Shown here: positions 4,268-52,873 of the stretch, piece by piece
Position numbering within the stretch: the first letter of the stretch is position 1
Layout: each line of letters starts with the position of its first letter
NCBI GenBank assembly: GCA_038213805.1
Contig: JBBQSO010000006.1
Coordinates: forward strand, 32,001-96,000
Direction of reading: 5' to 3'
DNA from: Planctomycetota bacterium
GTDB taxonomy: Bacteria > Planctomycetota > UBA11346
Length of the DNA: 64,000 bases
Made by a program: the position numbers and the translations under genes
The notes under the pieces: generated by a model
Seen by the model: only the letters and a program-made list of their open reading frames with translations
The model's database searches: none
Told to the model about the DNA's origin: nothing

Positions 4268-4857
4268 GGACGAGATCGATAACGATCATACTCGGCGGTA
4301 TCGTCGCTAGTGCGACGGTTGTGGCGCTGGCGATGGCCATGCCATCGCGGAGCTTGGTTACCGAAGGCAGGAGCCCGGTCCTGTCTTCGGCGCTGGCTGC
4401 TCAAGCCGACTCCGCCCCAGCCGTGTCGGCTTTGGCGAAAGCCGGCGCTGATGCGTCACGGATGTTCGGGGAGCTGTGCGTCGTGGGCCATAACGGCACG
4501 TCTGGTGCGCCCAACAACCCCACGGAATTCCCTGGCCATGCGCTGACGGTCGTGGCACAGCCGCCTGCATCTGCAGGTGGCTCTGCTACCGGACTCATGA
4601 CCAGGGACCGTCGTACGGGGATGGTGAATAGGCCTCCGATCATCAGTCCCGGCAGTCAGATGGTCGACGGCACTCCTGAGCCTGGTGCGGCGGCAATGAT
4701 TGCGGATGGACAGTCGATACCCTCTGCACAACCAGAGTCCGTACCGCCGCCCACCACCTGCGTGCCACCAGGGCGCCGAGTGCATGGTCGATCCCATTTT
4801 GGTAGTCTGCATATGCAGGCGGCTTTCCATCCGCCTCTGCCGAGAAGCCCGGGGTAA
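4264..4857 (+). CDS. Hypothetical membrane-anchored or secreted Pro/Ala-rich protein
   Basis: ATGA overlap with the upstream gene; N-terminal hydrophobic helix; 3' end uncertain. Confidence 0.5.
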   Translation: MRTRSITIILGGIVASATVVALAMAMPSRSLVTEGRSPVLSSALAAQADSAPAVSALAKAGADASRMFGELCVVGHNGTSGAPNNPTEFPGHALTVVAQPPASAGGSATGLMTRDRRTGMVNRPPIISPGSQMVDGTPEPGAAAMIADGQSIPSAQPESVPPPTTCVPPGRRVHGRSHFGSLHMQAAFHPPLPRSPG

Positions 4858-4940
4858 TGCGGTCCGGGCGCACCGGTTCGCATGGATGAGACGATGGTTC
4901 GTGCCGACTGCCGGTCGCTGGCGCTGGATGTGGGCCACCG

Positions 4941-9720: not shown

Positions 9721-10094
9721 TCATGTCTGGGCGCGCGTCGTCAGGGCGCATGGACCATCCCGCACACGCGCGTGGCGGCGCGACGCGCGTCCTCGGCAGC
9801 GCGGTGCGGGCGCGCGCAGGCGGCTGCCGCGACGACGCATCGTCGATGGCCCCCTTGCGTGTTGAACGTGGCTAAGGGTATGGTTGCCGACTCCGCGATC
9901 CGACGCCGGAAGCGGAGCCACGTTCCGTCGCGTGCAGCCAGGCCGTCCTCCGGGAGGGCCAACCCTGTACGCGACCCGCTCTTTGGCCGCCCCAGGTGGA
10001 GATTCATCTCAAGTCGGGACGGCGCCGTGCCGTTCATGACTCGCTTCCTCTCCGCAGGGATTCCCTGCACCCGCATTTGCTCCGGAGCTTGTCC

Positions 10095-28804: not shown

Positions 28805-28807
<3 letters not shown>
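28787..28807. repeat. Short heptamer array (GCGCCTC)x2 + GCGCCTA overlapping the kinase TAG stop
   Basis: Read directly. Confidence 0.6.
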
Positions 28808-30892
<2,085 letters not shown>

Positions 30893-31005
30893 GTTCCACC
30901 AGCGCGGGTTGCGGTCCGGGAAAGAAGCGGTCATACTCAGGGATTGGCGCTGCCCCCTGGGAGGCCAGGAAGCTTACCCGATTTTTCCGCACGCAGGTGG
31001 AGCGC

Positions 31006-34000: not shown

Positions 34001-35469
34001 CGAGCATCGTCGAGGCCACGCGCAGCGCACTCGCGCGGCTCGCCGCGGATGCGGGCGAGGGCGATGCCGACGTGGTGCGCTGGCAGGCCAAGGTCGCGCG
34101 CGTCGCCGCCCTGTGCGGGAAACTCAAGGTCCTCGATGCCGCGACCATGCCCGATGATGGCGAGCACCTGCACGCCCAGCTGGTCGTCGAGGTCGGCGCC
34201 GCGGACGCCGAGGCGCAGCGCTGGGGCGCGCGCCTGGGCGAGATCGCCGCGGCGCGCGCCGCGGTCGCACCGCTGGCCCGGATCCAGCCGCTCACGCCCA
34301 CCGCCGTCGCCGACCTGGTGCGGCTGCGCGCCCTGGTCGGCGCCGCCGACGCCGGCTGGCAGCGCCTCGACGCCAAAGTCGCGCGCGTCGGCGAACTCGC
34401 CGCGCTGCTGCGCCCGCTTGCAACCACCTACGCGCAGGCTCCGGCCGCAGCCACCGCCACCCACGCCGCCCTCGCCGAGCTGGTGGGCCTGGTCGGCGTC
34501 GGCGACCCCGGCTGCCGCGCCTGGGCGCAGCGTCAGGCGCTGCTCGACGGTCCTGGCCGACCGGCCTGGGCCAGCGCCGCCGGCCAGGACGAATACGGCC
34601 CGTGGGCGCTGGTGCGCGTCGGTGACGCCGAGGTGCGCTTCCGCTATGTCCCCCCCGGCGCCTTCCGCATGGGCAGCCCCGACGACGAGACCGGCCGCGA
34701 GGGCGACGAGGTCGCCGTGCCGGTGACTCTCACCCAGGCCTTGTGGCTGGCCGAAAGCGAGTGCCCCCAGCGCCTGTGGCACGTCGTGACCGGCGGCGCG
34801 CCCAGCCGCTTCACCGGTGACGATCGCCCGGTCGACAGCGTCTCGCTCGACGACATCCAGGCGTTCCTTGCCGCGCTGACGCGGCGCGTGCCGGGTCTGC
34901 CCGCGCGCCTGCCCAGCGAGGCGGAGTGGGAATACGCCTGCCGCGCCGGCGCGATCGGGCCGTGGGCCGCGGGCCCGGGCGGCGCGCAGCGCAGCCTGGA
35001 CGGCCTCGCCTGGTACGCCGCGAACAGCCACGGCGAGAGCCACGAGGTCAAGCTGCGTTATCCCAACGCGCTCGGCCTCTACGACCTCCAGGGCAACGTC
35101 AGCGAGTGGTGCCGCGACCGCTACGCGCCGTATCCGACCAGCGCGGCGAGCGACCCGCTCGGTCGCGACGGCGCGCAGGGCGTGGCCCGCGGCGGTTCGT
35201 GGGGCGACGGCCAGGCGACGCTGCGCGCGGCCAACCGCTTGCCGGCGCGCCCCAGCCTGCGTTCCGCCTACCTCGGGTTCCGCCTCGCCGCCGCGGTGCA
35301 GTGGCCGGTCCCGCCCGACGGCCTGGCCCTGCTCGGCGCCGGCGCGGCGACGCGCGGCCAGATCGAGTTCCAACTCGGCACCGCGCACGTGCGCGTCGAG
35401 GTCGCGCTGCCGGCCGACGGCCTGCCCAGCGCGACGTCAGCACCCCGCCCCGCCCAGGCGACGCCATGA
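31006..35469 (+). CDS. Membrane Ser/Thr kinase with extracytoplasmic helical repeats and C-terminal FGE/SUMF1 domain
   Basis: GEGGMGAVY, HRDIKPPN, DFG, GTPAYCSPEQ; one TM helix; RLPSEAEWEYACRAG, NALGLYDLQGNVSEW, RGGSW, GFRL. Confidence 0.93.
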   Translation: MASEPHQDDRAPPAPPGAAAPSAPTAAAGQSGRPSTRFQPVQPLLIPGFGEEGQQPQGRSPTLHPFTTSRDLSREPTTLLRPAPELEPEPEAAGREVTLLGGEAVLDGREATLGAGALHGREATLLGAVGGREATPLRPAGSFALTGREPTLRGAATPRPAGGGTSAGTVAGGAAGVTGREPTLAAGGGSRRPITQPTDLGGRAGAPAAPSGRPRTGSGTSVSFDDAWHLQGRRGPHTGAKWGDFELGGILGEGGMGAVYRAKQVSLKRRVALKVLPPNLAADDKLLQRFHLEARTSSILSSPHVVQVYAIGEHDGNHYFAMEFVEGTDLYDIIKQRQTDHQPFTPDEAADLVVQAAKGLAEAGRHGIVHRDIKPPNLMVAKGNLLKIADFGIVKIMGEHQLTMTGQAVGTPAYCSPEQGRGEAQIDTRSDLYSLGVVFYELLCGRKPFEGTTPNALIYQHCYGEPELPQKLNPLIGDEYQAVVLRCLQKKPEHRYACADDLVKDLESIRAGSMLKSAIAHYRLGTGADEAKREQMNWWQRHLAAVAGAAGLVVVLGGGGVWAWADHAQRVRLAASEEQSRRDIAASEERQKHELSAARLRATLASLDQIAPLPADVEARLDELAAAAGSGDADVARWRAKVTRVRLLAGGLVALDTAEPDAAARISAGADLTAYAALVGTGDAAAERWAARLAQAQKDEDELRAKLGVLDTAALTQAAADSLRPLLAQLQRLVPADDARVRAWGERLAGFDARITALIARIAPLDAGGRITEGQRGACLEALGQLRPLLGAADARVQRWERRLQEAEGLVGRLRAAIGAVLGTVDRPSVPAQDTIEIDLAQLRTLLDSDDPDLKRWDLQIRSANAAIAKLRERLAALDALPKGETAPFALLAPLHQAVDELRGLARPGDADVLRWEAALRVGDELIATLRTRLRRLDGAQAEPIALAQQQALAHDLERLDAKGGVDGEQAAAWSSRLAAEAARVAALRTALAVLDRPASIVEATRSALARLAADAGEGDADVVRWQAKVARVAALCGKLKVLDAATMPDDGEHLHAQLVVEVGAADAEAQRWGARLGEIAAARAAVAPLARIQPLTPTAVADLVRLRALVGAADAGWQRLDAKVARVGELAALLRPLATTYAQAPAAATATHAALAELVGLVGVGDPGCRAWAQRQALLDGPGRPAWASAAGQDEYGPWALVRVGDAEVRFRYVPPGAFRMGSPDDETGREGDEVAVPVTLTQALWLAESECPQRLWHVVTGGAPSRFTGDDRPVDSVSLDDIQAFLAALTRRVPGLPARLPSEAEWEYACRAGAIGPWAAGPGGAQRSLDGLAWYAANSHGESHEVKLRYPNALGLYDLQGNVSEWCRDRYAPYPTSAASDPLGRDGAQGVARGGSWGDGQATLRAANRLPARPSLRSAYLGFRLAAAVQWPVPPDGLALLGAGAATRGQIEFQLGTAHVRVEVALPADGLPSATSAPRPAQATP

Positions 35470-38400
35470 AGACCTATGCCAGACTGGTGCGCTGGACTGC
35501 GCTCGCCGCCGTGCTGCTGCTGCTGCTCGTCCAGGGCGGACTCGGCGCGGCCGAAAGCGTCGGCATCGATCCCTTGCCGAGCCAGGTGCGCAGTCGCAGC
35601 GACGTGCCGGTTTCCGGCACCTTCAGCACCGCTGGGGCCGCCACCACCCTGCGCTTCTTCGTCGACGGCGCACTCGACGGCACCACCGCGGCGACGGGCT
35701 CGTGGAGCTACGTCCTTGGCGCGACCAGCAGCGGCCTGACCGGGCCCTACGCCGACGGCCAGCACACCCTGCTGGTGCAAAGCGAGGACGGCGGCGGGGC
35801 GCTGTTCGCGGTCGCCGCGGCCACCTTCACCGTCGACCTCAGTCCGGATCTCTTCCTTGGCGGCCTGGGCGTGCGCGACACCGGACCGGCGACCTTCGCC
35901 GCCGGCGAGAACGTGCTGGCGAGCGGCGCGGCGATCAGCAGCTACCCGTCCACAGCGGTGCCGGCGACCAAGGTCAAGACGCTCGCCATCACCCTCGACG
36001 ACCGCCCCGACGGCAGCGCCGAGACGCTTAAACTCAAGACCGGTTTCGTGCTGGCGAGCGCGCTGACGGCGACCTTCGACAATCTCAGCGGTACCCTCAC
36101 CATCACCATCTCGGGCGCGACCCCGGTCGCGCCCAGCGTCCTCGCCGACGTCGCGCGCAACGTCGTCTATCTCACCACCCAGACCTCGCCGACCGCGGGC
36201 CTGCGTCGCGTGCGCTGGACGTTGACCGACAAGAACAACGCGGTGTCGCCGGTCGCCACCGCGACCATCGCCGTCACCAACGGCAGCGGCGGGCCGCCGG
36301 TGGTGTCGCTGGGTGGCGATTTCGCCAGCGCCAACGTCACCGCGACCCTGCTCGAGGGCGGCGGCGCGCTCGCCATCGCGCCGGGCGCGCGCATCCTCGC
36401 CAACCCCACCGCGCCGTGGCCGACGCCGGTCTTCGATACGGTGACCAGCCGCTACACGCCCTCGTTCATCTACACCATGACCGCCAACGACAGCCTCTCG
36501 CAGTACAGCGGCGCGGTCCTGGATACCATCACCATCACGCTGACCAATCCGGGCGGCGGCGGCCTGCTGCCCGCCGGCACGGAATCGCTGAGCACCACCC
36601 CGACCAGCGAATTCACCTACGGCAGCACCTTCGTGACCCGTCCGGCCAACGCAGCGCCAGGCCACTTCCTGTACTTCGACGGCAACGAGGCGCCGCTCGA
36701 CACGCCGGTCGCCGGCGATGGCGGCGCCTATATGATGTACACGGTGGGCGGCAGCTACAGCCAGGGCGCCAGCAGCGGCAGCCTGGTGGTCCGCGCCAAC
36801 CAGAACACGGCCCAGCTGGTGTGCCCGATCCGCAGCGCTTCCGGAACCACTTTCGCACCCGACGTGCGCCCCATCCCCACCGCCTTCGCCGAGACCCTGC
36901 TGCGCACCATCGCCTACACCAACACCAGCACCAACCCGACGCGGCTGGGCAACCAGCGCGTGGTCACGGTGACGGTCAGCAACGCGTGCACCGCCGCGAC
37001 GATCCGCAGCTCCGTGACGCGCACCTGCACCATCACCCTGGTGCCGAGTAATGAGGCGCCGGTGATCGCCGGGCCAAGCTCCTTCTCCGGCAACGAAGAC
37101 GCCCCGCTCGCCCTCAATGGCCTGCAGATCTCGGACAATGATGGCAACGGCGGCAACGAAACCCTCACCCTGGAGGTCGCGCACGGCACGCTCAGCCTGG
37201 GCGACCTCACCGGCCTGGCCGTGGTCGGCAACGGCACCGCCAAGGTCACCCTCACCGGCGCACTCGACGACCACGCCAGCGGCGTCCTGGCGCTCGCCCT
37301 CGCCCGCGCGCTGCGTCCCGGCAACCTCACGTTCGCTCCGACCGCGCAGTTCAGCGGCACCGACCAGCTGCGCGTGATCCTCACCGACAACGGCCACTCC
37401 AGCGACGCCACCGCCACGCCACAGACCACCACCTTCCTGCCCAACTCCGGTGGCGGTCCGATCACCCTCATCATCGCCGCGGTCAACGATCCGCCCGATG
37501 CGGCGCTGCCCGGACCCCAGGTCACCCAGGAGGACCAGGACCGCATCATCGGCGGCCTCGCGGTGAGCGACCCTGACCAGCCGACCGGGCAGGTGCAGGT
37601 CGCCCTCGCCGCCGTGCACGGCGTGCTGACCTTGAATGACATCACCGGACTCGACTTCGCCTTCAGCGATGCCGACGGCAGCGGCAGCGGCAGCGGCACG
37701 GCCGACCGCACGATGGTCTTCCGCGGCACGCTCAGCGATATCAACACCGCGCTGATCGCGGTGAACTACCATCCCGACCTGCACTTCTACGGCAGCGAAA
37801 CCCTGACCATCGCGGTCAATGACCTTGGCAACACCGGCCTGCGCAGCGGCGCCGCCGGCGGCACCATCGCGTTCGGCGGCAGCGCCAATTCCTGGGTGCG
37901 CACCCGCACCGTGGCGATGTCGGTGCGCTTCACCGATCAGCGACCGGAGGTCGTGGTGAGCCCGGCCAGCTGCCTGGTGAGCGGCACCATCACCCTCGTC
38001 GGCGGCACTTATCTCGCGCCCACCTATCCGCTCCTCGGCCAGCCGCTCAACCCAGACGCCACACCGGCCACCCCACCCGGGGCCGGCACCAGCGCAAACG
38101 CTGGATCGCCGGGCTCCAATCTGGTCGCGAGCGACACCGAGACCAGGGACGCGCGCGGCCTGACCTACACCGTGGCGCTGGCCACTACCCAGGGCGACCT
38201 GCTGCGCCGCCGGCCGGGCGACCCTGTGGATGGCGTGCTGCTGGCCGCCGGCACGGTGTTCACCCAGGATGACCTCGACAACGGCTTCATCACCTATGTG
38301 CACAATGGTGCGCTGAGCGGCGACGACGGCTTCGTCTTCACCGTCGCCGACGACAACAACGTCAGCCATCCGGCCGGCGCCAGCGATGTCCAGCGCCAGC

Positions 38401-39575
38401 AGTCGCCGCCCACCGTCTTCCCGATCGCCATCGACCGCAGCCTGCCGGTGGTGGTGCTCGCCGGCGGTGGCGCGACCTTCATCGAGTCCATCGCCGGCAC
38501 ACCCGGCAGCGGACCGGTCGCGCTCGACAACGATCCCGCGACCGCGGTGGTCAACGCCACCTCACCCGGGGTGTTCGTCCCACCCAGCGGCGCCGGCAGC
38601 GTGACGGTCAGCCTGGCCATCCCGACGCCGGTGGCGACCGCGCTCACCCCGTCGGGCGATGTCCAGGACGTGATCGCGCTCAAGGACCAGGCGCCGATCA
38701 CGGTCAGCGGTCAGACCGTGCTGTTCAACGGCAGCCAGGCGATCGGCTCGCTCAGCGGTGGTGGCGGCGGCGCGCCGCTGGTGATCAGTCTGAGCTCTTC
38801 CGCGCCAATCCCGGTCAGCGCGGTCAGCGCGCTGATCCGCAACCTGACCTTCACCAACCCCTCGGCCAACCCCTCGGCCGCGACCCGGGTCGCGACCATC
38901 ACCGTGCAGAACGGCAGCGGCCTGAACAGTCTGCCGGTCACCACTGCGATCACCGTGGTACCCGTCAACAATCCGCCGGTGATCGCCACGCCCGTGCTCG
39001 TCGCGACCGTACCTGGCCTGACCGTTACCGGCCAGGTGGTCGTGAACGACCCTGACAGCCTGCTCAGCTTCGACGTCACCGGCGCGCCGCCCACCAAGGG
39101 CCAGGTGAGCGTGGCCGGCAACGGCACCTTCACCTACGCCGCGGCGGCGGTGGTCGCCGGCGCCGGCGGCCTGCTCAGCGATCATTTCGACATCACCGTC
39201 ACCGACGATTTCGGTGAGACCGCGACCACGACCTTCACCGTGCGCATCAGCGATCTCGGCGCGACCGCGCCGGTGGTGACCTCGAATCCACCGATGGAGG
39301 CGACCAAGGACGGCGCGCTGGTCTACCAGCCTGCGGTCTCGACCGCCGGACTCGTCGCGCCCGTGCTGCGCTACGTGCTGGTCGGCCCGACCCCGGTGCC
39401 GACCCAGGCACCCAGCTTCAGCACCAGCGACGGTACGCTCAACTGGACGGCGGTGCCGCAGCCGATTGGCGGCTACTACGACCTCGGCATCCTGGTCATC
39501 GACCAGGTCAGCGGCAGCGCCACCTACCAGCCGATCCTGCTCAAGGTCGTGACGCCGCCGGCGGGGGGGGGCTGA
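35466..39575 (+). CDS. Large secreted adhesin-like protein with Ig, cadherin-like and CSPG-type repeats
   Basis: ATGA overlap with the kinase; signal peptide; NEAP/VNDPP/VNNPP linkers, NED/QED, DxD motifs; FTQDDLDNGFITYVHNG...DDGFVFTVAD. Confidence 0.8.
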   Translation: MKTYARLVRWTALAAVLLLLLVQGGLGAAESVGIDPLPSQVRSRSDVPVSGTFSTAGAATTLRFFVDGALDGTTAATGSWSYVLGATSSGLTGPYADGQHTLLVQSEDGGGALFAVAAATFTVDLSPDLFLGGLGVRDTGPATFAAGENVLASGAAISSYPSTAVPATKVKTLAITLDDRPDGSAETLKLKTGFVLASALTATFDNLSGTLTITISGATPVAPSVLADVARNVVYLTTQTSPTAGLRRVRWTLTDKNNAVSPVATATIAVTNGSGGPPVVSLGGDFASANVTATLLEGGGALAIAPGARILANPTAPWPTPVFDTVTSRYTPSFIYTMTANDSLSQYSGAVLDTITITLTNPGGGGLLPAGTESLSTTPTSEFTYGSTFVTRPANAAPGHFLYFDGNEAPLDTPVAGDGGAYMMYTVGGSYSQGASSGSLVVRANQNTAQLVCPIRSASGTTFAPDVRPIPTAFAETLLRTIAYTNTSTNPTRLGNQRVVTVTVSNACTAATIRSSVTRTCTITLVPSNEAPVIAGPSSFSGNEDAPLALNGLQISDNDGNGGNETLTLEVAHGTLSLGDLTGLAVVGNGTAKVTLTGALDDHASGVLALALARALRPGNLTFAPTAQFSGTDQLRVILTDNGHSSDATATPQTTTFLPNSGGGPITLIIAAVNDPPDAALPGPQVTQEDQDRIIGGLAVSDPDQPTGQVQVALAAVHGVLTLNDITGLDFAFSDADGSGSGSGTADRTMVFRGTLSDINTALIAVNYHPDLHFYGSETLTIAVNDLGNTGLRSGAAGGTIAFGGSANSWVRTRTVAMSVRFTDQRPEVVVSPASCLVSGTITLVGGTYLAPTYPLLGQPLNPDATPATPPGAGTSANAGSPGSNLVASDTETRDARGLTYTVALATTQGDLLRRRPGDPVDGVLLAAGTVFTQDDLDNGFITYVHNGALSGDDGFVFTVADDNNVSHPAGASDVQRQQSPPTVFPIAIDRSLPVVVLAGGGATFIESIAGTPGSGPVALDNDPATAVVNATSPGVFVPPSGAGSVTVSLAIPTPVATALTPSGDVQDVIALKDQAPITVSGQTVLFNGSQAIGSLSGGGGGAPLVISLSSSAPIPVSAVSALIRNLTFTNPSANPSAATRVATITVQNGSGLNSLPVTTAITVVPVNNPPVIATPVLVATVPGLTVTGQVVVNDPDSLLSFDVTGAPPTKGQVSVAGNGTFTYAAAAVVAGAGGLLSDHFDITVTDDFGETATTTFTVRISDLGATAPVVTSNPPMEATKDGALVYQPAVSTAGLVAPVLRYVLVGPTPVPTQAPSFSTSDGTLNWTAVPQPIGGYYDLGILVIDQVSGSATYQPILLKVVTPPAGGG

Positions 39576-39577
39576 GC

Positions 39578-40417
39578 ATGATCCCGATCACCATCCTCCG
39601 TCCTGCCGGCCGCGTCGCCCTCGGTGCATGCCTCCTCCTTGGCGCCGGCTGCGGCTCTCCCGACGCCGGCGTCAGCGTGGGCGGCGGGGGCGGTGCGAAC
39701 GGCGGGCTGTCGGCGGCGGTCGGCAATGCGACCTCGCCTTTCCTGGTGCTCGATCTCGTCGCCGGCACCCTGCGCAGCGCCGCGACGGTCGACGATCTCG
39801 CCACCAACGCCGCCTGGCGCACGACCTCGCTGGTATTCCGCCGCGTGCACGGCCTGGGCGATGACTACTTCCTGGGGGTGTTCGAGACCACCCAGGAGCA
39901 GTGGACGCGGCTGGGCGGCGCCCAACCCTGGAGCGCGCTCAGCAGCGCGGTGGTCGGCAGCGGCGCAGTCGCCGCCGACCATCCCGCCTTCGCCCTCAGC
40001 TATGCCGACATCCAAGCCGTCGTAAGCGCGTATGCGGCGTCGCACCAACTGCGTCTCGCGGTGCCCACCACCGCGCAGTGGCGCTTCGCCTGCGCCGCCG
40101 GCAGTGCCGGCGCCTACGCCTGGGGCGACGGCACCGATCGCGCCACGGTCGCGGCCAACGCGGTGGTCGCTGAAACCCTGGGCGGCACGCCCGGGCCGCG
40201 CAGCGTCGGCGCGCTCAGCGCCAACGCCGCCGGCTTCTACGACATGCACGGCAACGTCTGGGAATGGACCAGCCCGGGAACGGGCGTCAGCGGCGGCTCG
40301 TGGCACGACGGCATCGCGCGCGCCACCACCCAGGGCCAGGCCGGCTTCGCCGACGCGCAGATCACCGACCTCACCGCCCACGCGCTGATCGGCGTGCGGC
40401 TGGTCTTGCAGCCGTGA
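39578..40417 (+). CDS. FGE/SUMF1-domain lipoprotein
   Basis: Lipobox GAG-C; FETTQEQW, VPTTAQWRFACAAG, NAAGFYDMHGNVWEW, GGSW, IGVRLV. Confidence 0.88.
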   Translation: MIPITILRPAGRVALGACLLLGAGCGSPDAGVSVGGGGGANGGLSAAVGNATSPFLVLDLVAGTLRSAATVDDLATNAAWRTTSLVFRRVHGLGDDYFLGVFETTQEQWTRLGGAQPWSALSSAVVGSGAVAADHPAFALSYADIQAVVSAYAASHQLRLAVPTTAQWRFACAAGSAGAYAWGDGTDRATVAANAVVAETLGGTPGPRSVGALSANAAGFYDMHGNVWEWTSPGTGVSGGSWHDGIARATTQGQAGFADAQITDLTAHALIGVRLVLQP

Positions 40418-40440
40418 GCGGCGTGCGCAGCATCGCCGCG

Positions 40441-41106
40441 ATGCGCACCTCCCTGGTCCTTCGTCTGCCCGTGGCCGGCCTCGTGCTTGGCGCGCTGGCC
40501 CGTGCGACGCTGCCAGGCGCCGAGCTGGTGGTGCGCGACCTCGATATCAATGCGGTGGCGCTGCCCACCAGCTTCAGCTACACGCTGACCGGTTCAGGGT
40601 CGTCTGGTTCGGGCAATGATGCCTTCGCCTCCGGCACTGGCCTGGGCGTCGGTGGGCGCTGGTCGCTGGCGCGCCCCGGCGATGCGCTGGGCTTGGTGCT
40701 CGGTCTCGACGCCATGCTCGAGGACTGGACCTATGGCAGCAGCGCGGATGCGCTGTTCGCGGCCGACCTGCGCGCCAGCGCCGGCCTTGGCTGGGCGATC
40801 ACGCCGCGCTGGACGGCGATCGCCGAGCTCGGCGCCGGCTACGGCTTCAGCCATCTGAATCTTCCGGCCAGCGCCATCGCTCCGGCCTTCTCGGCGAGCG
40901 GCAACCACCTCGCCTACGACCTGCGCGCGGACCTGCGCTGGCAGTTCGCGCACGGGCTGGTCCTGGTCGTGGAGGGCGGCTGGCTGCACAGCGCGCACAG
41001 CTTCTCCAATGGCGGCATCAGCGACCTGAAACTGACCCAGAGCGGATTGTACGCAGGGATCGGCTTCTCTTGGCGGTTCAGCGATGCGCCGGAGCGGCTC
41101 GAATAA
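40441..41106 (+). CDS. Outer-membrane beta-barrel protein (about 8 strands)
   Basis: Signal peptide; alternating aromatic/Gly strands; terminal strand GLYAGIGFSWRF; alternative GTG start at 40414. Confidence 0.7.
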   Translation: MRTSLVLRLPVAGLVLGALARATLPGAELVVRDLDINAVALPTSFSYTLTGSGSSGSGNDAFASGTGLGVGGRWSLARPGDALGLVLGLDAMLEDWTYGSSADALFAADLRASAGLGWAITPRWTAIAELGAGYGFSHLNLPASAIAPAFSASGNHLAYDLRADLRWQFAHGLVLVVEGGWLHSAHSFSNGGISDLKLTQSGLYAGIGFSWRFSDAPERLE

Positions 41107-41125
41107 AGCGATGCGCCGGAGCGGC
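41080..41125 (+). repeat. 19-bp direct repeat AGCGATGCGCCGGAGCGGC spanning the beta-barrel stop codon
   Basis: Copies at 41080-41098 and 41107-41125. Confidence 0.85.
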
Positions 41126-41224
41126 GCGAACCAGGCAGGCGCGAGTCTCGCCGCGCGCGAAAAACACCCGTGTGGCTGTGCGCGCGTCCCGAGGGCCGCT
41201 GTTCCCAAGCGCGGGCGTCGCTGG

Positions 41225-42952
41225 TCACTCTTTCCGCAGCGTGCGCATCCCCATCATGACCATCAGGCCTGCGAGCAGCGCGGTCGCTCCGCCCAGGCCA
41301 CAGCCACCGCCGTTTGCGCTGGTGACCCCGGCCGGGGGTGGGCCGCTGGTCGTGCCGGTCGGTGCGGCGTTCACCGTGATGGTCACGCTGGATGAGGTGG
41401 CGACGCCGCTCGGACCGCTGGCCTGGGCGGTAAGGACATAGGTGCCAGCGGATACCGGGGTCCAGGTATCGGAATACGGCGCGCTGGTCGCGGTGGCGAT
41501 GGGGATGCCGTCGTGGCTGAAGGTCACCGCGGTGACCGCGCCCGCGCTGTCCGTGGCGGTCGCAGTGAGCGTGATGGTCGCGGGTGCGGTGAACGTCGTG
41601 CCCACGCCGGGAGTGGTCATGACGACCGCCACCGTGCCCACCGTGCCGCCGCCGCCCGTGGTGCCGCCGCCGCCACCGCCCCCACCACCTCCGCCGACGA
41701 CGACGCTGGAAGCGAACGCATACGCGCCCGCGTCCACGCCGCCCACATCGGCGCGCGCGCTCAGCGCGCCGACATCGTCATACATGAACGTCGGGGTGCC
41801 CGACTGGCTGGCGCCTGCGCCATCGAAGTAGGTCGCACCCGGGGTGCCGAGGCCGCGCGCGGTGGAGGACGAGAGCAGGTGCAGGTCGCTGAATGACGCG
41901 ACGAAGCCAGGGTCCGCGCCCAGCAGCCCGGTGAAGCCGGACGGCACCGTCGCGCCGGTCGGCATCCAGTTGCCGGAACCGGTCACTGATCCGGTGGTGC
42001 CGTCGGCGATGCGGGCGCTGCCGACCATGATGTTGCCGCGCGCGACGATCGCCGACTCCGAGCGGCTGGCACTGAGGAAGATGTTGCTCGACGCGCCCGC
42101 GATGAAGGTGTTGTTGAACGCATAGAGCGTGCCCTGGTGGGCGTTGCCGCTCTCCCCCCCGAACAGCACGAAGCGTCCGCTGTTCCAGCCGGATCCGCGC
42201 ACCTTGCTGATCACGACGTTGCCGATCATCACCGCGTTGCTGTTCGCCGCGGCGGTCTCGGGGCTGTCGACCATGCCGATCTCGCCATCCTGGGAATCGG
42301 CGATGCGGTTGTAGAGCAGGGAGACGAAGTGCGCGCGGGTCTTGACGTTCTGCCCGAACAGCGCGTCGTGGATGGAGCAGCCACGGAAGGTGACGCGTCC
42401 GCCGCCGACGTAGATGTTGTGGCTGAAGCCTGAGAACGACGCGGTGCCGTTGTGGTCGATTTCGCAGCCGTCGACCAGCAGGCCGTCGTGGCCGTCAGCC
42501 ATGATGCCCATGTCGTTGTCGTGCAGCCGGCAGTCGCGTACCACGATGCCGTTGATGCCGGCTCCGGTCACGCGCACGCCCGCCCCGTCATTGCTATTGC
42601 GCGCATTGATGAACTCGAGGTGCTCGACCACTACGTTGCTGCCTTCGATCTGGAAGACCGCGCGCGGGTTGGGCATGGCGCCATCAACGGTGAAGCCGCT
42701 GGCGTCGATCACCGGACGGGTGGTGCCCAGGCCGCGGATGGTGATCGGGCTGCCGACCGTGCCGGAGGCCGTCCAGCGCCGCACCTCGTTGTAGGTGCCG
42801 GGCCCGATCTCGACGACGTCCCCGGGCACCAGGGCGGGCAGTGCCGCGAGGGTGGCGAAGGGCTGGCCGGCGCCGACCTCGTACGTGGCCGTCTGGGCGA
42901 GCCCGACGCAGGCCAGCAGGGCGATGAGGGGGGTGCGGGCGCGCAGGGTCAT
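41225..42952 (-). CDS. Secreted right-handed beta-helix (pectate-lyase-like) protein with Ig domain and Cys-containing C-terminal sorting signal
   Basis: Signal peptide; PGDVVEIGPGTY, HNIY, GQNVKTR, DAGAY; Gly linker; Ig domain; GGGCGLGG + TM + basic tail. Confidence 0.85.
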   Translation of the reverse strand: MTLRARTPLIALLACVGLAQTATYEVGAGQPFATLAALPALVPGDVVEIGPGTYNEVRRWTASGTVGSPITIRGLGTTRPVIDASGFTVDGAMPNPRAVFQIEGSNVVVEHLEFINARNSNDGAGVRVTGAGINGIVVRDCRLHDNDMGIMADGHDGLLVDGCEIDHNGTASFSGFSHNIYVGGGRVTFRGCSIHDALFGQNVKTRAHFVSLLYNRIADSQDGEIGMVDSPETAAANSNAVMIGNVVISKVRGSGWNSGRFVLFGGESGNAHQGTLYAFNNTFIAGASSNIFLSASRSESAIVARGNIMVGSARIADGTTGSVTGSGNWMPTGATVPSGFTGLLGADPGFVASFSDLHLLSSSTARGLGTPGATYFDGAGASQSGTPTFMYDDVGALSARADVGGVDAGAYAFASSVVVGGGGGGGGGGGTTGGGGTVGTVAVVMTTPGVGTTFTAPATITLTATATDSAGAVTAVTFSHDGIPIATATSAPYSDTWTPVSAGTYVLTAQASGPSGVATSSSVTITVNAAPTGTTSGPPPAGVTSANGGGCGLGGATALLAGLMVMMGMRTLRKE

Positions 42953-42966
42953 GGCGATCTCCGCCC

Positions 42967-42995
42967 CATCTCTCCTACCCCCCACGCATCGTTAC
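42967..42995 (-). promoter_or_regulatory. Candidate ECF promoter GTAACG-N14-GGAGAGATG for the beta-helix gene
   Basis: Same motif and spacing as the divergent copy at 43055-43083. Confidence 0.6.
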
Positions 42996-43054
42996 CGGCG
43001 CCGTGGCGGATCCCGGTTGACCACGCCGGTCGTCCCGGGGTACTCATGGGGCAT

Positions 43055-43083
43055 GTAACGTTCCGGTGCGCCGGGGAGAGATG
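43055..43083 (+). promoter_or_regulatory. Candidate autoregulatory ECF promoter GTAACG-N14-GGAGAGATG
   Basis: AAC-containing -35-like element typical of ECF promoters; twin copy on the opposite strand. Confidence 0.6.
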
Positions 43084-43095
43084 CTGCAACCCGCC

Positions 43096-43614
43096 ATGCT
43101 CGACGCCGACCAGGAACGCTTTACCAGCCTGTGGACGCAGGCGCACCCATCCATCGCCGGCTACGTCGCCGCGCTGGTCCCGGAGCGCAGCGCGGCCGAC
43201 GACGTCCTGCAGGAGACCGCCCTGACCCTGCTGCGCACCTTCGCGGAGTACGATCCTAGCCGGCCCTTCATCGCTTGGGCGATGGGGGTGGCGCGCATCG
43301 CCGTGCTCACCCGCCGCCGCGACCACGCGCGGGCCCGCTCGCGCTTCAGCGCCCCCGCCGCCGTGGCGCTCGCCGAAGCCTGGCAGGAGCTCCAGCCGGT
43401 GGCCGACGACCGCCGCCACGCCCTGGCGGAATGCCTGCGCGGGGTCGCCGGCCGCGGGCGCGAACTGCTCGCCCTGCGCTATGAGCAGGACCTTCCGCCC
43501 CAGGACATCGCTCCGCGCCTGGGCATGACGGCGGTGGCGGTGCGGGTCGCGCTCTGCCGCCTGCGGGCGGGGCTGCACGCCTGCATCGAAAAACGCCTGG
43601 GCGGCCAGGCATGA
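43096..43614 (+). CDS. ECF RNA polymerase sigma factor (PVC-type)
   Basis: ADDVLQET, YDPSRPFIAWAMGVAR, LRY...IA.RLG...VRVALCRLR; alternative start at 43081. Confidence 0.93.
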   Translation: MLDADQERFTSLWTQAHPSIAGYVAALVPERSAADDVLQETALTLLRTFAEYDPSRPFIAWAMGVARIAVLTRRRDHARARSRFSAPAAVALAEAWQELQPVADDRRHALAECLRGVAGRGRELLALRYEQDLPPQDIAPRLGMTAVAVRVALCRLRAGLHACIEKRLGGQA

Positions 43615-45551
43615 GTCCGCCGCCGGACCCCGACAGCCTGATCAGCGCCCACCTCGACGGCGAACTCGACGATGCGGGCCACCGCGCGCTCGAGGCCTGG
43701 CTGCTCGCCGACCGCGCGCATCAGCGCCGCTTCCTCCTCGCGGTCATGGACCATCGCGCCATGGCGCGGTCGCTCGCCGCCCGACCGGCCCTGACCATGC
43801 GCACCGCGCGCCTGATGCGCCGTCGTCGTGGACTGCGCGTCGCCTCCTGGTCCGGTGCGGGCCTCGCCGCCGCGCTCATCATCGGACTCACCGTCCTGCT
43901 GTGGCCCACCGGCGCCGCGCCGGGACCGCACCTGCAGGTTGCGGGCGCCAGCGCTGCGCCAGGCCCGCGCCTGCAGATGACGGACACCCACGTTCCCGCC
44001 CAGCGCCTGGAAGCCGGTGCCGCGGTCACGGTCGCGCCCGGCAGCGGTGCCGTGCTGCTGTACGACGACGGTAGCCGCGTGGACCTGGATGCCGGCAGCG
44101 CGCTCTCCGTCACCGGTACACACCTGACCCTGCAGCACGGCCGCCTCGCCGCGAGCGTCGCGCACCAGGCTGCCGGCCAGCCCTTCATCATCACCACGCC
44201 CAACGCCACCGTGACTGTGCTGGGTACCATGCTGGACGTCGCCACCGACGGGGTCGAGAGCGTGGTCGCGGTCACCCGCGGCCGGGTGGCGGTCGAGCGT
44301 AGCGGCGACGCGGCGCGCCTTGAGGTCGGCGCCGGTGAGCGCAGCGTGGTGACGGTGGGCGGCCCGCTGGTGGCGCACGCTGCCGATGCCCCGGATGGCC
44401 GGCTCCTGCGCGTCGGCCCCGGTCAGCCATTCGCCACCCTCGCCGAGCTGCCAGCGCTCGCCCCCGGCGACGTGGTCGAACTCCAGCCCGGCACCCACCA
44501 CGGCGCCTGGCGTCTGGCCGCGCTTGGCACTGCGCTGCGCCCGGTCACCATCCGCGGCGCCCCGGGCGCTCCGCCGCTCATCGCCGCCGAGGGCCTGGTC
44601 CTCAGCGGTGCCGGCACGGTGCCGCGCGCCGCGCTCCAGCTCGAGGGCGGCCACTGGCGCGTCCAGCACCTCGCCATCGCGGACGCGCACAACGGCGAGA
44701 ACGCCGCCGGCATCCGCCTGGTCGAGGTGCGCGGCGCCATGCTCAGCGACTGCCGCATCACGCGCTGCGACCAGGGCATCGACGCGGTCGGCGAGCGCGT
44801 CGCGATCGAGGACTGCGACGTCGGCGGCTGCGGCACCGCGGGCGCCCAGGGCCGCTGCCGGGCGCTCAGCGTCTTCGCCGATGAGGCGCTGGTGCGCGGC
44901 TGCCTGCTCCACGACCAGCTCTTCGGTCAGTCGCTGCGCAGCACCTGTGCGCGGTTGGAGCTGGTCGCCAACCGCATCATCGCCGCGGCCGACGGCGAGA
45001 TCAGCATCGCTACCGGCGCGCAGCCGACCACTGCGATCCTGAGCGGCAACTTGATCGTCAGCAGCGCTGCGCGCCCCGACAACAGCATGCGTTTCATCCT
45101 GGTGGAAGGTGAGGGTGCGGGTGTCCTGCAGCTGATCGGCAACACCTGTGTGGCCGCCGACGCGCGCATCGTCTTTCTCATTCCGGGCCGCCTGGCGGTC
45201 GCCGCGGACGGCAACATCTTCACCGGCAGCGGACGCATCGCCGAGGCCGGCCGGGTCGAGGGCTACCGCAACTGGCTGCCGTCCGGCGCCACCGTGCCGG
45301 CGGGCTTCCGCGACTCACGCAGCGCCGCTGCGCCAGGCTTCCGTGATGAGGCGCAGGGCGATTACAGCCTGGCGCCGGATTCACCGTGCCGCAACACGGT
45401 CCGGGACATGTGGAGCCAGGATGTCGATGCCCCGCATGCGCCGGGCACCGTCGGTGGTCTGCTGCCCAAGCGCATGCCGGCCGCGCTCAACAAGGCGGGC
45501 AGCCGGGCGCGTACCGCACGCACGGATATGGGGGCATTCGAGGACGGGTGA
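43611..45551 (+). CDS. FecR-type anti-sigma factor with C-terminal beta-helix sensor domain
   Basis: LISAHLDGEL anti-sigma N-terminus, TM helix, FecR core (DGSRV...PFIITTPNATVTVLGT...V.RGRV), then a beta-helix homologous to the neighbouring enzyme. Confidence 0.9.
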   Translation: MSPPPDPDSLISAHLDGELDDAGHRALEAWLLADRAHQRRFLLAVMDHRAMARSLAARPALTMRTARLMRRRRGLRVASWSGAGLAAALIIGLTVLLWPTGAAPGPHLQVAGASAAPGPRLQMTDTHVPAQRLEAGAAVTVAPGSGAVLLYDDGSRVDLDAGSALSVTGTHLTLQHGRLAASVAHQAAGQPFIITTPNATVTVLGTMLDVATDGVESVVAVTRGRVAVERSGDAARLEVGAGERSVVTVGGPLVAHAADAPDGRLLRVGPGQPFATLAELPALAPGDVVELQPGTHHGAWRLAALGTALRPVTIRGAPGAPPLIAAEGLVLSGAGTVPRAALQLEGGHWRVQHLAIADAHNGENAAGIRLVEVRGAMLSDCRITRCDQGIDAVGERVAIEDCDVGGCGTAGAQGRCRALSVFADEALVRGCLLHDQLFGQSLRSTCARLELVANRIIAAADGEISIATGAQPTTAILSGNLIVSSAARPDNSMRFILVEGEGAGVLQLIGNTCVAADARIVFLIPGRLAVAADGNIFTGSGRIAEAGRVEGYRNWLPSGATVPAGFRDSRSAAAPGFRDEAQGDYSLAPDSPCRNTVRDMWSQDVDAPHAPGTVGGLLPKRMPAALNKAGSRARTARTDMGAFEDG

Positions 45552-45552
45552 G

Positions 45553-46218
45553 TCAGCCCGCGAGATGCGCCGCGATACGCTCGCGGTCGTCCGCGCTGAG
45601 ATGGCGCCGCCCATCGATATCGTTGGCCGCCAGGTGATCGGCCGCCTCGCTGATGGTGATGATCGGCGCCACCACCACGCCCAGGTCGCGGTGCAGCTCC
45701 TGGATCGCGGTCAGGTCACCTTGGCCGCGCTCCTGGCGGTCGACGGCGACCACCGCGCCCAGCACGCGCGCGCCGCTCGGCTGCAGCTTGGCCAACGACT
45801 CGCGCAGCGCGGTACCCGCAGTCAGGACGTCATCGACGATCACCACCGGCGTGCCCGCGACCAGCGGCGCGCCGACGAACAGGCCGCCGTCGCCATGGGT
45901 CTTGGCCTCTTTGCGGTCGTAGGTCCAGCCCACCTCGCGCCGGACCAGCACTTCGTAGGCCTGGGCGGTGGCGAGAGCCAGGGGGATGCCCTTGTAGGCC
46001 GGCCCGAACACCACCTGCACCCCGTCGCCGAAGCGCGCCAGCACGGTCGCGGCATAGGCCGCGCCCAGGCGCGCCAGGTCGCCGCCCTGGTTGAAGCATC
46101 CGGTGTTGATGAAATAGGGGCTCTTGCGCCCCGACTTCAGGGTGAAGTCGCCAAACTTCAGGGCCTGGCGCCGGACCAGCAGCGCGACGAAGTCGCGCTG
46201 CGCAACCGACAGGGTCAT
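45553..46218 (-). CDS. pyrE: Orotate phosphoribosyltransferase
   Basis: [45 protein letters not shown]. Confidence 0.98.
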
Positions 46219-46670
46219 CCCTCGACGATTTCGACGCTGAAGCGGTCGCCCTGCTTGACCGCGAGCACGACCTTGAGGTCGGCGGGGCCCGCGATGCGGC
46301 CGAACACGGTGTGCACGCCGTCGAGGTGCGGGGTGGCGGCGTGGGTCAGGAAGAACTGGCTGCCGCCGGTATCCTTGCCAGCGTGGGCCATGCTCAGCGT
46401 GCCGGGCGAGTGCTTCTCAGGATTGTTGGTGGTCTCGCACTTGATGTTCCACCCCGGGCCGCCGGTGCCGGGTGCGCCGCGCGCGCCGGCTTTGGTGTTG
46501 GGGCAGCCGCCCTGAATGACGAAGCCCTGGATCACGCGGTGGAAGGCGAGCTGGTCGTAAAAGCCGGCCTTGGCCAGCTTGATGAAGTTTTCGACGGTCT
46601 TGGGCGCGACCTTCGAGAACAGCTCGACGGTGATGTCGCCGCGCGGGGTGTGGAAGAGGGCTTTGGTCAT
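46215..46670 (-). CDS. Cyclophilin-type peptidyl-prolyl isomerase
   Basis: [47 protein letters not shown]. Confidence 0.96.
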
Positions 46671-46767
46671 GGCTGCTCGCAGGGGTGGGTGGGCGGCGAT
46701 GGTCGAGTGGACTGCGGAGCGCGCAAGAGGCGGCCAGCCACGGCGGCCCGGCCGGGCCCCGTGCGCG

Positions 46768-46817
46768 TTGACAGGGGGTCGCCAGGGATTCACATATCAG
46801 AAGCCTATCGAAATAGG
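46768..46817 (+). promoter_or_regulatory. TTGACA -35 element plus palindrome CCTAT-CGAA-ATAGG (candidate Rrf2 operator)
   Basis: Consensus -35 at 46768; dyad at 46804-46817 upstream of the Rrf2 gene. Confidence 0.45.
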
Positions 46818-46886
46818 GGATTTGCCGCAGGGTCGGGGTGCCGACTGTGGGTGGATCGGGCCGCTCGGCGTCCAGAACCAGGGGCC

Positions 46887-47309
46887 ATGCTCACCAACCG
46901 CGCCAAGTATGCGATCAAGGCCCTGCTCCACCTCGCCCGCCACCGTGGCGAGGGGCCGGTGCAGGCCGGCATGATCGCCAAGGCGGAGCAGATCCCGCCC
47001 AAGTTCCTGGAGCTGATCCTGCTCCAGCTGCGCAACCACGGCATCATCCGCAGCAAGGTCGGCAAGGGCGGCGGCCACGAGATGGCGCGCGAGCCCGCCG
47101 ACATCAATTTGCTGACCGTGGTGCGCGCCATCGACGGCCCGGTCGCGCCACTGCCCTGCCTGAGCGTCACCGCCTACGCGCGCTGCGACGATTGCGAAGA
47201 CGAGAAGAACTGCGGCGCGCGGCACCTATTCCGCGGCGTGCACGATGCCGCCCTCGAGGTCATGTCGCGGACCACGCTCGCCGACGCAGTCACGGTCAAG
47301 GGTCGCTGA
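46887..47309 (+). CDS. Rrf2 family transcriptional regulator
   Basis: KYAIKAL, IPPKFLELIL, GKGGG, IDGPVAPLPC...CDDC.....C. Confidence 0.95.
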   Translation: MLTNRAKYAIKALLHLARHRGEGPVQAGMIAKAEQIPPKFLELILLQLRNHGIIRSKVGKGGGHEMAREPADINLLTVVRAIDGPVAPLPCLSVTAYARCDDCEDEKNCGARHLFRGVHDAALEVMSRTTLADAVTVKGR

Positions 47310-52094: not shown

Positions 52095-52204
52095 GCGTGA
52101 TGATACGCCGAGGACGGTCCGCCGCCAACCGCCGCCACCAACATGCCGGGTGCTCCTGCATTGCCCCTTGGTTAGCCCGCTCGCGAACCTATATTCCCGC
52201 CGCC

Positions 52205-52873
52205 ATGGACAACACCGGCAAGATCTACCTCGGGAACCTCGGTCGCGTACCGCTCTATGCCTCATTCGAGGCGATATTCCTGGTCGTTTTCGTTTTCTAT
52301 CAATGGCAGGGCATGCCGCGGGCCTACCAGTCCGGCGCATACTTCATCTGTCTCATCCTGATCTTCCTGCTCACTATCGTCCTGCACGAGTTGGCCCATG
52401 CGTTGGCGGCGTTGTCCCGCGGCATGTCCGGGGTTACGATCACCATCGGGGCACTTGGCGGCTACTGCTCTTACGTCGGGGTGCCCCAACCGGCCCGGCA
52501 GTTCATGATCAGCTGCGCCGGACCGCTGACCAACCTGCTCATCGCCTATGGATTCTATCTGCTCGCCCGCGCCGATTTCAGTAGCGACCTGTTGCGCTTC
52601 TTCGTTGAACAGATGTTCTTTTGGAACCTGGTGCTCGGCATCCTCAATCTGCTACCGATATACCCACTCGATGGTGGGCAGATGCTGCTCGCGTTGAGCG
52701 AGCTTGGGCTGGCCAAGCGCTCCGCGCGCCACCTGACCCTGTGCGTCAGCCTGCTCGTGGGGGTCGGCCTCATCATCTATGCGCTGAGCCCGTTCAACCA
52801 CTACGTGGGTACCCTAACCATCGTGTTGATCATCTCGCTGCTCTTCGCCGCCTTCCGGGACCTCCGCTCGTGA
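52205..52873 (+). CDS. Site-2 protease (peptidase M50)
   Basis: HELAH, AGPLTN, NLLPIYPLDGG. Confidence 0.93.
   Translation: MDNTGKIYLGNLGRVPLYASFEAIFLVVFVFYQWQGMPRAYQSGAYFICLILIFLLTIVLHELAHALAALSRGMSGVTITIGALGGYCSYVGVPQPARQFMISCAGPLTNLLIAYGFYLLARADFSSDLLRFFVEQMFFWNLVLGILNLLPIYPLDGGQMLLALSELGLAKRSARHLTLCVSLLVGVGLIIYALSPFNHYVGTLTIVLIISLLFAAFRDLRS

Follow-up and report, generated by a model that had tools for sequence, protein, structure and literature searches.

Planctomycetota are major degraders of complex polysaccharides, and how they sense their substrates is little known. A locus in a Planctomycetota bacterium (contig JBBQSO010000006.1 of assembly GCA_038213805.1, positions 32,001 to 96,000, the 64-kb stretch referred to here as the window) raises the question of whether a polysaccharide-acting enzyme can be turned into the receptor that controls its gene. 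Between positions 41225 and 45551, the window holds a three-gene module: a beta-helix gene on the minus strand, whose product we call the enzyme, and, divergent from it on the plus strand, genes for an extracytoplasmic function (ECF) sigma factor and a FecR-type anti-sigma factor. The C-terminal ~385 residues of the anti-sigma are paralogous to the enzyme and will be called the sensor. We favor, at a probability of roughly 0.65, an explanation in which the three genes form one signaling module: the enzyme-derived beta-helix on the anti-sigma senses a glycan without cleaving it, frees the sigma factor, and raises expression of the enzyme. The features of the module are as follows.

41225..42952, minus strand: enzyme gene, encoding a secreted beta-helix protein (P0001/P0023); open reading frame with Pfam Beta_helix and Big_7
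41711..42889, minus strand: beta-helix domain of the enzyme, from alignment A2; carries the family-invariant residues
42970..42995, minus strand: promoter-like motif copy facing the enzyme gene, GTAAC-N15-GGAGAG, exact match
43055..43080, plus strand: promoter-like motif copy facing the sigma gene, GTAAC-N15-GGAGAG, exact match
43066..43614, plus strand: ECF sigma gene (P0003), with Sigma70_r2, Sigma70_r4_2, and TIGR02989
43611..45551, plus strand: gene for the FecR-type anti-sigma with a beta-helix sensor (P0002, 646 residues), from the open reading frame, Pfam FecR, and the structural model
43611..43790, plus strand: cytoplasmic N-terminal helical domain (residues ~1–60), presumed to bind sigma, from the helices of the model
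43848..43916, plus strand: single hydrophobic membrane segment (residues ~80–102), by Kyte-Doolittle hydropathy
44025..44288, plus strand: FecR domain (residues 139–226), Pfam FecR at 50 bits and Foldseek
44223-44228, plus strand: Gly205-Thr206, putative self-cleavage site, from alignment A4 with Escherichia coli FecR
44388..45548, plus strand: beta-helix sensor domain (residues 260–646), from BLASTP, alignment, and model

The three genes are present as the first-pass annotation of this DNA had described them. P0003 (182 residues) matches Sigma70_r2 at 41.4 bits and Sigma70_r4_2 at 27.2 bits in Pfam; in NCBIfam, it scores 64.9 bits against TIGR02937 (cut-off 42.9) and 139.3 bits against TIGR02989 (cut-off 124.55), the ‘Rhodopirellula/Verrucomicrobium family’ model. 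These matches place it among the ECF (group 4) sigma-70 factors. The ATG of the anti-sigma gene overlaps the sigma stop codon by four nucleotides (ATGA).

The anti-sigma P0002 is predicted to cross the membrane once, its five top Kyte-Doolittle windows starting at residues 79–85 as one cluster. Its AlphaFold model (mean predicted local distance difference test score, pLDDT, of 83.2) runs from a confident N-terminal three-helix bundle (helices 7–15, 21–33, and 35–56, with a block pLDDT of 88–92 for residues 11–50) through a low-confidence linker containing a helix at 87–96 to the FecR beta-domain and a long beta-helix, the latter with pLDDT >90 across most of residues 260–600. The FecR domain (PF04773) scores 50 bits against a cut-off of 24; at the N-terminus, DUF4880 (15.7 bits) and zf-HC2 (15.6 bits) are weak matches under their cut-offs. 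Gly205-Thr206 aligns with Gly181-Thr182 of E. coli FecR, and both residues are invariant in the nine sequences of alignment A4. In Foldseek, the model first retrieved two anti-sigma structures, the C-terminal signaling domain (CCSSD) of PupR (6ovk, E 5e-7) and BDI_1681. In source annotations, the fusions go under the name ‘ferric-dicitrate binding protein FerR (iron transport regulator)’, which is probably wrong for the beta-helix fusion clade.

The enzyme is built from a signal-peptide-like N-terminus, a beta-helix (residues 33–425, P0001 numbering), a Gly-rich linker, a Big_7 immunoglobulin-like domain, and a C-terminus consisting of GGGCG, a hydrophobic helix, and a basic tail; its Pfam scores are 38.6 bits for Beta_helix and 54.3 bits for Big_7. 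It is a secreted, probably surface-tethered beta-helix protein. Structure prediction gives a beta-helix in both proteins, the enzyme model having a pLDDT of 86.2. Foldseek matched the enzyme model to beta-helices of polysaccharide lyase (PL) families PL9, PL31, and PL6 and of glycoside hydrolase (GH) family GH136 at probability 1.00 and 12–18% identity, and it matched the sensor model, after the anti-sigma structures, to the same PL9, GH136, PL6, and PL31 beta-helices, again at probability 1.00. For the best chain of each family, E ranged from 1e-7 to 6e-5 with the enzyme model and from 9e-7 to 2e-4 with the sensor model, and the target-normalized template modeling score reached 0.72 (6kfn). 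Among PDB sequences, the Big_7 domain alone was matched and the beta-helix domain found no match (best E 0.25 with family profile A2 and 0.66 with member P0053); for this reason, catalytic residues are not transferable to the enzyme. The protein has the right-handed parallel beta-helix fold of PL6, PL9, PL31, and GH136, and neither sequence membership in these families nor their catalytic residues were found. In the ESM Atlas, the enzyme fell into generic beta-helix clusters only, and the anti-sigma reached a top score of 0.77 with no large fusion cluster.

Two side observations concern the tail of the enzyme. Eleven of 14 clade-A enzymes (among P0024–P0043, the window's included) share a C-terminus in which a Gly/Ser-rich stretch is followed by GGGCG, a hydrophobic helix, and a tail rich in Arg. 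The tail of the window's enzyme (41228–41401, minus strand) gives a weak match to the NCBIfam model ‘MXYO-CTERM-anchored’ (E 0.0034, 16.9 bits, cut-off 200). Such tails may represent a Cys-containing C-terminal sorting signal in Planctomycetota.

Origin of the sensor domain

The homology between sensor and enzyme is strong at the protein level. BLASTP aligns enzyme residues 35–361 with anti-sigma residues 266–577 at 132/328 identities (40%, E 4e-64), and a 139-sequence alignment carries the match to a C-terminal D-x-G-A motif (D418/G420/A421 in the enzyme, D639/G641/A642 in the anti-sigma). Because this motif also matches, the two domains correspond over their whole length apart from a variable stretch in the middle, as had been claimed, and every peptide pair quoted for that claim occurs in the translations, including SHNIY replaced by CRALS and GQNVKTR by GQSLRST. 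The similarity said to be visible in the DNA is there in part: two collinear stretches are 76% identical over 149 nt (E 3e-22) and 121 nt (E 8e-17), which encode the two most conserved peptide stretches. Nothing was seen elsewhere, and megablast returned no match.

The fusion is a family rather than an isolated gene. A word-indexed search with the sensor domain retrieved 20 proteins, the window's own among them, and 19 of these carry FecR; a library-wide profile search has about 14 full-length fusion representatives (50% clusters) in its top 150 matches. The free-standing enzyme family has at least 170 members among 8000 scored candidates. The 120 enzyme-family proteins listed all share 50–100% identity with the window's enzyme, and FecR is absent from every one of them. 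The pair of a sigma gene and a FecR-beta-helix gene occurs in six of 39 genome loci (L001–L006), all in metagenome-assembled genomes (MAGs) of Planctomycetota, and the nearest relatives of all three module genes likewise come from Planctomycetota MAGs.

How old is the fusion? The first-pass annotation proposed a local duplication, in which the neighboring enzyme gene was copied and fused to FecR here, or separately in each lineage, so that each sensor should be closest to its own neighbor. The genes adjoin, and the two stretches of 76% DNA identity could be taken as traces of such an event, yet they coincide with the most conserved peptides and nothing else. Three lines of evidence speak against local duplication. 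First, identity within a pair is low. All 19 sensors are 34–43% identical to the window's enzyme, and at 40% the window's own sensor is no closer to it than are foreign sensors, which gives no support for a sensor grouping with its own neighbor. In eight of eight independent pairs (the window, three genome loci, and four inferred pairs, a fifth inferred pair being identical to locus L002), sensor and enzyme share 34–41% identity, against the 60–84% that separates orthologous enzymes of other genomes from the window's enzyme. Second, sensors across genomes group with one another instead of with the neighboring enzymes. One tree combined 19 sensors with 44 enzymes, namely the six presumed partners and every third of the remaining 114 (76 left out); in it, one branch splits sensors from enzymes, with a support of 99 in the Shimodaira-Hasegawa-like approximate likelihood ratio test (SH-aLRT). 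Another tree, of 65 rows picked by hand, was given an outgroup of 14 distant beta-helix proteins; its 17 sensors fall into one clade (support 100) nested inside the enzyme family, with no sister group singled out there. Third, a constraint joining the window-type sensors with their adjacent enzymes, a group defined after the first tree was seen, is rejected (log-likelihood difference, delta lnL, 268.5; approximately unbiased test, AU, p 2e-44). Local duplication is hardly credible in view of these results.

The single sensor clade, the rejected constraint, and the absence of any special closeness within the window's own pair together indicate that the fusion was one old event followed by co-inheritance. 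As the trees and identities show it, a FecR-type anti-sigma captured a copy of the enzyme family once, anciently, and was thereafter inherited jointly with the intact paralogue. Pairwise identity matrices of sensors and enzymes correlate (r = 0.90), and in 34 of 36 comparisons, which span nine labels (two of them the same locus), the sensors differ more than the enzymes do. Between L001 and L004, the ratio of nonsynonymous to synonymous substitution rates (dN/dS) is 0.12 for both the enzyme and sigma and 0.21 for the sensor. By these substitution measures, the sensor is under purifying selection and evolves somewhat faster than the enzyme.

Residues lost from the sensor

If the sensor has been kept for so long, has it been kept as a catalyst? 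Among 120 enzymes, 110 columns are at least 95% conserved, and the family-invariant residues include D158, E175, N179, H189, N190, Y192, N213, K215, R217, H219, Y225, and E235. N179, N190, Y192, N213, K215, R217, and H219 are present in 120/120 enzymes, and Y225 in 118/120. The relatives that are 29–30% identical to the enzyme still retain HNLY and NIKTR, a persistence that points to a central functional role for these motifs. N190/Y192 and N213/K215/R217 follow an i, i+2 spacing on successive coils, from which the two sets would face the same outer surface.

These residues are the ones that the sensors have lost. Out of 19 sensors, N179, N190, N213, and R217 survive in one each, H219 in two, K215 in three, and Y192, Y225, and M159 in none, so that residues invariant in 120/120 enzymes are lost in 16–19 of 19 sensors. 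Other polar residues are kept: D158 and R271 in all 19; D207, D233, E235, and N268 in 18; N256 and N318 in 17; and H206 and N292 in 16. The proposal that the polar motifs had been specifically replaced is thereby borne out. No sensor keeps the full invariant set (0/19), the replacements at the lost positions vary by sensor subclade, and no new conserved polar cluster takes their place; residues conserved specifically in sensors are mostly hydrophobic or structural (L, A, G, P, and F) plus two Arg. A Cys pair replacing an Asn ladder specifically in sensors was considered and rejected: position 157 is Cys in 95/120 enzymes too, so that only N179 to Cys is sensor-specific.

Should the sensor have remained an enzyme, its activity either unchanged or altered, it would act as a membrane-anchored catalyst or signal through substrate turnover. 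Its fold is intact (pLDDT >90 over most of 260–600) and under purifying selection (dN/dS 0.21); D158, D207, D233, E235, N256, N268, R271, and N292 are retained, H189 persists in 14/19 sensors and K215 in 3/19, and the GH10 sensor of RsgI6 keeps a very low activity, according to the portion of PMC4711584 consulted. Against these stand the complete loss of Y192 and Y225 (19/19), the absence of the full set from every sensor, and substitutions that differ between subclades without building any new polar cluster. We regard an active sensor as unlikely. The reading of the sensor as a pseudo-enzyme that has lost residues invariant in its relatives holds at the sequence level, and from it we predict a loss of catalysis with binding retained.

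The upstream motif and the genes it marks

The third question is whether the sigma factor controls the enzyme gene. An alignment of the divergent intergenic regions from the window and from L001, L002, and L004 brought out a motif, GTAAC-N15-GGAGAR, that occurs exactly twice in the 64-kb window against 0.01 expected (shuffle mean), twice in each of L001–L006, and in none of the 34 other loci. ECF -35 elements typically contain ‘AAC’, as the upstream half of this motif does. There are 15 sites overall, 14 exact and one with a single mismatch (before the L006 sigma gene), and every site faces the gene next to it, a sigma gene in seven cases and a neighboring gene in eight. The spacing from GTAAC to GGAGAG is 15 nt in 15/15 sites. 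For most neighbor-gene sites, the start codon lies 13–31 nt downstream (17 nt for the window's enzyme), and several of these genes have a second GGAG or GAGG closer to the ATG. Orientation tracks the gene even where two sites lie kilobases apart on one strand (L005 and L006). Fixed spacing, gene-following orientation, and distance to the start codon fit a promoter read by the module's own sigma, with predicted control of the enzyme gene. The motif-bearing neighbors are enzyme orthologues in the window, L001, L002, and L004, and two distant beta-helix genes in L006.

The motif also bears on the gene starts. The minus-strand frame of the enzyme is open over 41225–42985 (586 codons); the ATG at 42952, which gives a 575-residue form, is the likely start, since the database copy P0023 uses the same start (at M12) and the upstream GTG sits within the conserved non-coding motif. 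The GTG at 43066 is an unlikely start for sigma, because it too falls within a motif copy; in-frame ATGs follow the sigma-facing motif of the window at 0 and 15 nt, and one of these, at 43081 or 43096, is probably the true start. The sigma genes of the window (43081–43098), L001, L002, and L004 all have an in-frame ATG right after the motif and another 12–15 nt on. If the motif is the promoter, sigma transcripts would have no leader or almost none.

The enzyme gene might instead lie outside the reach of this sigma; the motif would then serve ribosome binding, act as a leader element, or be bound by another regulator, and the genes would adjoin for historical reasons. GGAGAG looks like a Shine-Dalgarno sequence, and ECF46, the nearest described group, was reported without a conserved promoter motif in the part of the supplement of PMC7826278 considered. 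A ribosome-binding site or leader element would leave unexplained the spacing fixed at 15 nt in every site, the orientation that follows the gene in L005 and L006, and the confinement of the motif to loci with the module (0/34 elsewhere); moreover, most neighbor-gene starts are too far away for ribosome binding, and several have a nearer GGAG/GAGG. We dropped GGAGAG as the ribosome-binding site of the enzyme gene on account of its fixed spacing to GTAAC and its 13–31 nt to start codons, and we consider it doubtful that the enzyme gene escapes this sigma.

Other features of the region are few. No further copy of the enzyme domain, the sensor domain, or sigma was found in the window by tblastn. 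A scan of 41000–45800 returned no sigma-70 promoter and two terminator-like sites, both within genes; Rfam gave no match in 40000–47000, and no tRNA gene was found in the window. The flanks of the module carry housekeeping genes (phosphoribosyltransferase, cyclophilin, Rrf2, and exonuclease VII) or giant surface proteins. Upstream in the window lie several unusual genes (9996–23486, plus; 35424–39575, plus; 30808–35469, plus; 28805–30973, minus; 39578–40417, plus). Their products are a 4496-residue protein with 45 Big_12 repeats, a cadherin-like giant protein, two kinases (one a Ser/Thr kinase with a fused FGE-sulfatase-like domain, the other carrying an FHA domain), and a small FGE-sulfatase-like protein. 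In related loci, the module also has glycan-related neighbors of other kinds: a heparinase II/III-like gene directly follows the anti-sigma gene of L003 (4253–6217, plus), and a GH9 cellulase-like gene and a second sigma/FecR pair lie nearby in L005 (389–3481, minus; 3478–5282, minus).

Proposed signaling route, relatives, and meaning

Taken together, these data suggest a route by which the module would signal. The cytoplasmic helical N-terminus of the single-pass anti-sigma would hold sigma. Outside, the beta-helix would bind, without cleaving it, the same kind of glycan that the enzyme uses as substrate, or a breakdown product of it. By analogy with FecR/FoxR-type anti-sigmas, the protein would be pre-cut at its Gly-Thr bond; ligand sensed by the C-terminal part would then expose the N-terminal part to degradation by site-1 and site-2 proteases, releasing sigma. 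Free sigma would take RNA polymerase to both GTAAC-N15-GGAGAG sites, and its own operon and the enzyme gene would be expressed more. TonB-receptor, Plug, and STN domains were absent from the 36 open reading frames or frames scanned in the window; with no TonB-dependent transducer among them, the beta-helix would replace the transducer contact. We infer, on good grounds, that the glycan is sensed directly and without catalysis. As a side observation, the product of 52097–52873 (plus strand), with a Pfam match of 60.5 bits and a weak NCBIfam match to RseP (21 bits, cut-off 147.55), could be a candidate for the intramembrane cut, and no link between it and the module was seen.

Several points weigh against this account. 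The tree searches were of the ‘quick’ kind with SH-aLRT support only, on sensors with long branches and odd composition, and the dN/dS values come from one pair, with dS of 0.56–0.89. The status of the ‘enzyme’ rests on fold, at 12–18% identity, and on conserved polar residues in an uncharacterized family. Conservation and the i, i+2 spacing are the grounds for predicting that the lost residues lie in a substrate groove, and the retained H189 and K215 leave room for residual or altered activity. The GGAGAG half resembles a ribosome-binding site, and another factor could bind the motif. In two of six related loci, the motif-bearing neighbor is not a beta-helix gene: in L003, it is an M28-peptidase-like gene, and in L005, it encodes an unknown 493-residue protein in which hhalign found no similarity to the enzyme profile. 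The targets in L006 are 29–30% identical to the window's enzyme and give no BLASTP match to their own sensor. Judged from these loci, sensor-target matching is not universal.

The same loci bear on what the sensor recognizes. Its ligand could be a protein, for example the paralogous secreted enzyme, whose export or abundance would be reported as a feedback loop. Long joint inheritance and correlated divergence (r = 0.90) are also expected of interacting partners, and classical FecR senses a protein, the signaling domain of a TonB-dependent transducer, as set out in the sections of PMC9249621 drawn on here. Linkage on the same DNA accounts for the correlation equally well; furthermore, the modules of L003 and L005 have no beta-helix neighbor and the neighbors in L006 are distant, so that the sensor persists without its supposed partner. 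We hold protein sensing to be improbable and retain glycan binding as the favored function.

Three known systems invite comparison. The first is RsgI6/sigma-I6 of Clostridium (Acetivibrio) thermocellum. RsgI6 has a GH10 sensor of very low activity that binds xylan and cellulose and is 57% identical to Xyn10D, and sigma-I6 activates its own promoter and that of xyn10D, among others (PMC4711584, in the portion consulted). There, as proposed here, a near-inactive paralogue of a regulated enzyme serves as receptor. The likeness is functional only: RsgI6 pairs an RsgI N-terminal domain with sigma-I in a Gram-positive host, senses with a TIM barrel, and regulates scattered genes, whereas the present module pairs FecR with an ECF sigma, senses with a beta-helix, and has one adjacent target, with 34–41% identity between sensor and enzyme in place of 57%. 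P0002 has no Pfam match to RsgI or Laminin_G_3, and P0003 none of sigma-I type.

The second is ECF46, whose anti-sigma is FecR-like with one transmembrane segment and a Laminin_G_3 domain, and which occurs in Planctomycetes, Proteobacteria, and Verrucomicrobia (supplement of PMC7826278, in the part considered). Its authors propose direct periplasmic carbohydrate sensing (supplement file 1 of PMC7826278, likewise). The phyla overlap with those of the present module, and in both systems, a sigma gene is followed at +1 by a single-pass FecR-like anti-sigma with a carbohydrate-related outer domain. The two differ in that ECF46 carries a Laminin_G_3 lectin fold instead of an enzyme-derived beta-helix, a distinction drawn by anti-sigma domain and not by sigma clade; in that an intact paralogous partner adjoins the module here; and in that a conserved upstream motif is present here and none is reported for ECF46 in that part of the supplement. 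The words Beta_helix, pectate, and NosD are absent from the same part.

The third comprises FecI/FecR/FecA and FoxI/FoxR/FoxA. FecR and FoxR cleave themselves at a Gly-Thr bond, by a chemistry described in the sections of PMC9249621 drawn on here. The present module shares with them an ECF sigma, a single-pass FecR-domain anti-sigma, and the conserved Gly-Thr site, at which cleavage is predicted. It differs in having no TonB-dependent transducer in the 36 frames scanned and in the 385-residue beta-helix after its FecR domain, a combination in which the signal would be sensed directly. Among enzymes of known structure, the PL9 lyases (Pel9A, 1ru4; rhamnogalacturonan lyase, 5olr), the PL31 alginate lyase (6kfn), the PL6 enzymes (chondroitinase B and alginate lyases), and the GH136 lacto-N-biosidase share the right-handed parallel beta-helix, from all of which the enzyme is set apart by its 12–18% identity and the lack of a sequence-level match to solved structures. 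The principle is therefore known, from RsgI6 with its GH10 domain and from the lectin anti-sigmas of ECF46; what is new is the beta-helix variant on a FecR-type regulator. The literature searched, outside which some relevant planctomycete work lies, gave no description of a beta-helix form of the FecR sensor.

The chassis is not confined to this sensor. In the protein library, P0002-like N-terminal halves are also joined to Laminin_G_3, ricin, F5/8C, WD40, GH5-like, 3-keto-disaccharide-hydrolase, and other beta-helix ends. Side observations touch on two of these arrangements. In P0210, a GH5-like domain follows the FecR-type N-terminal half of this chassis; the nucleophile motif GEFG aligns with mannanase 1bqc, and the sequence reads YELVNTY at the position of NEP, a motif of GH5 enzymes. 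With its GH5-like domain seemingly devoid of the acid/base Glu, P0210 may be a second pseudo-enzyme sensor. P0205 and P0208 are single open reading frames that join an ECF sigma (region 4 only in P0208), a hydrophobic stretch, and a sensor-type beta-helix, with no FecR domain and without the HNxY/NxKTR residues; they could be sigma factors tethered to the membrane that carry a sensor of their own, or else products of merged gene calls. A general ‘enzyme turned receptor’ scheme may operate in Planctomycetota and their relatives, in which one FecR chassis would carry disabled copies of different carbohydrate-active enzymes, or lectin modules; the sensor described here, beta-helices of other types, and the GH5-like domain would be examples. 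Each such receptor would detect a polymer directly in the periplasm, with no TonB-dependent transducer, and would turn on intact enzymes by way of a promoter specific to its module, such as GTAAC-N15-GGAGAG. We offer this generalization tentatively, being more inclined to doubt it than to assert it.

To our knowledge, Planctomycetota largely lack the SusC/SusD and TonB-transducer routes of Bacteroidota. The module would provide a concrete, testable route of sensing: a periplasmic receptor that arose as an old copy from the enzyme family it seemingly controls, together with a promoter-like motif that marks its targets. It would be a second, independent solution of the RsgI6 type in unrelated protein families, which suggests that receptors with matched specificity are repeatedly obtained by converting a spare copy of an enzyme. 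The conserved sensor/enzyme pair also offers a handle on an uncharacterized beta-helix family with at least 170 members. If the general scheme is true, the sensor domains could be read as a code linking each glycan to the genes it induces, in a phylum whose regulation has hardly been studied.

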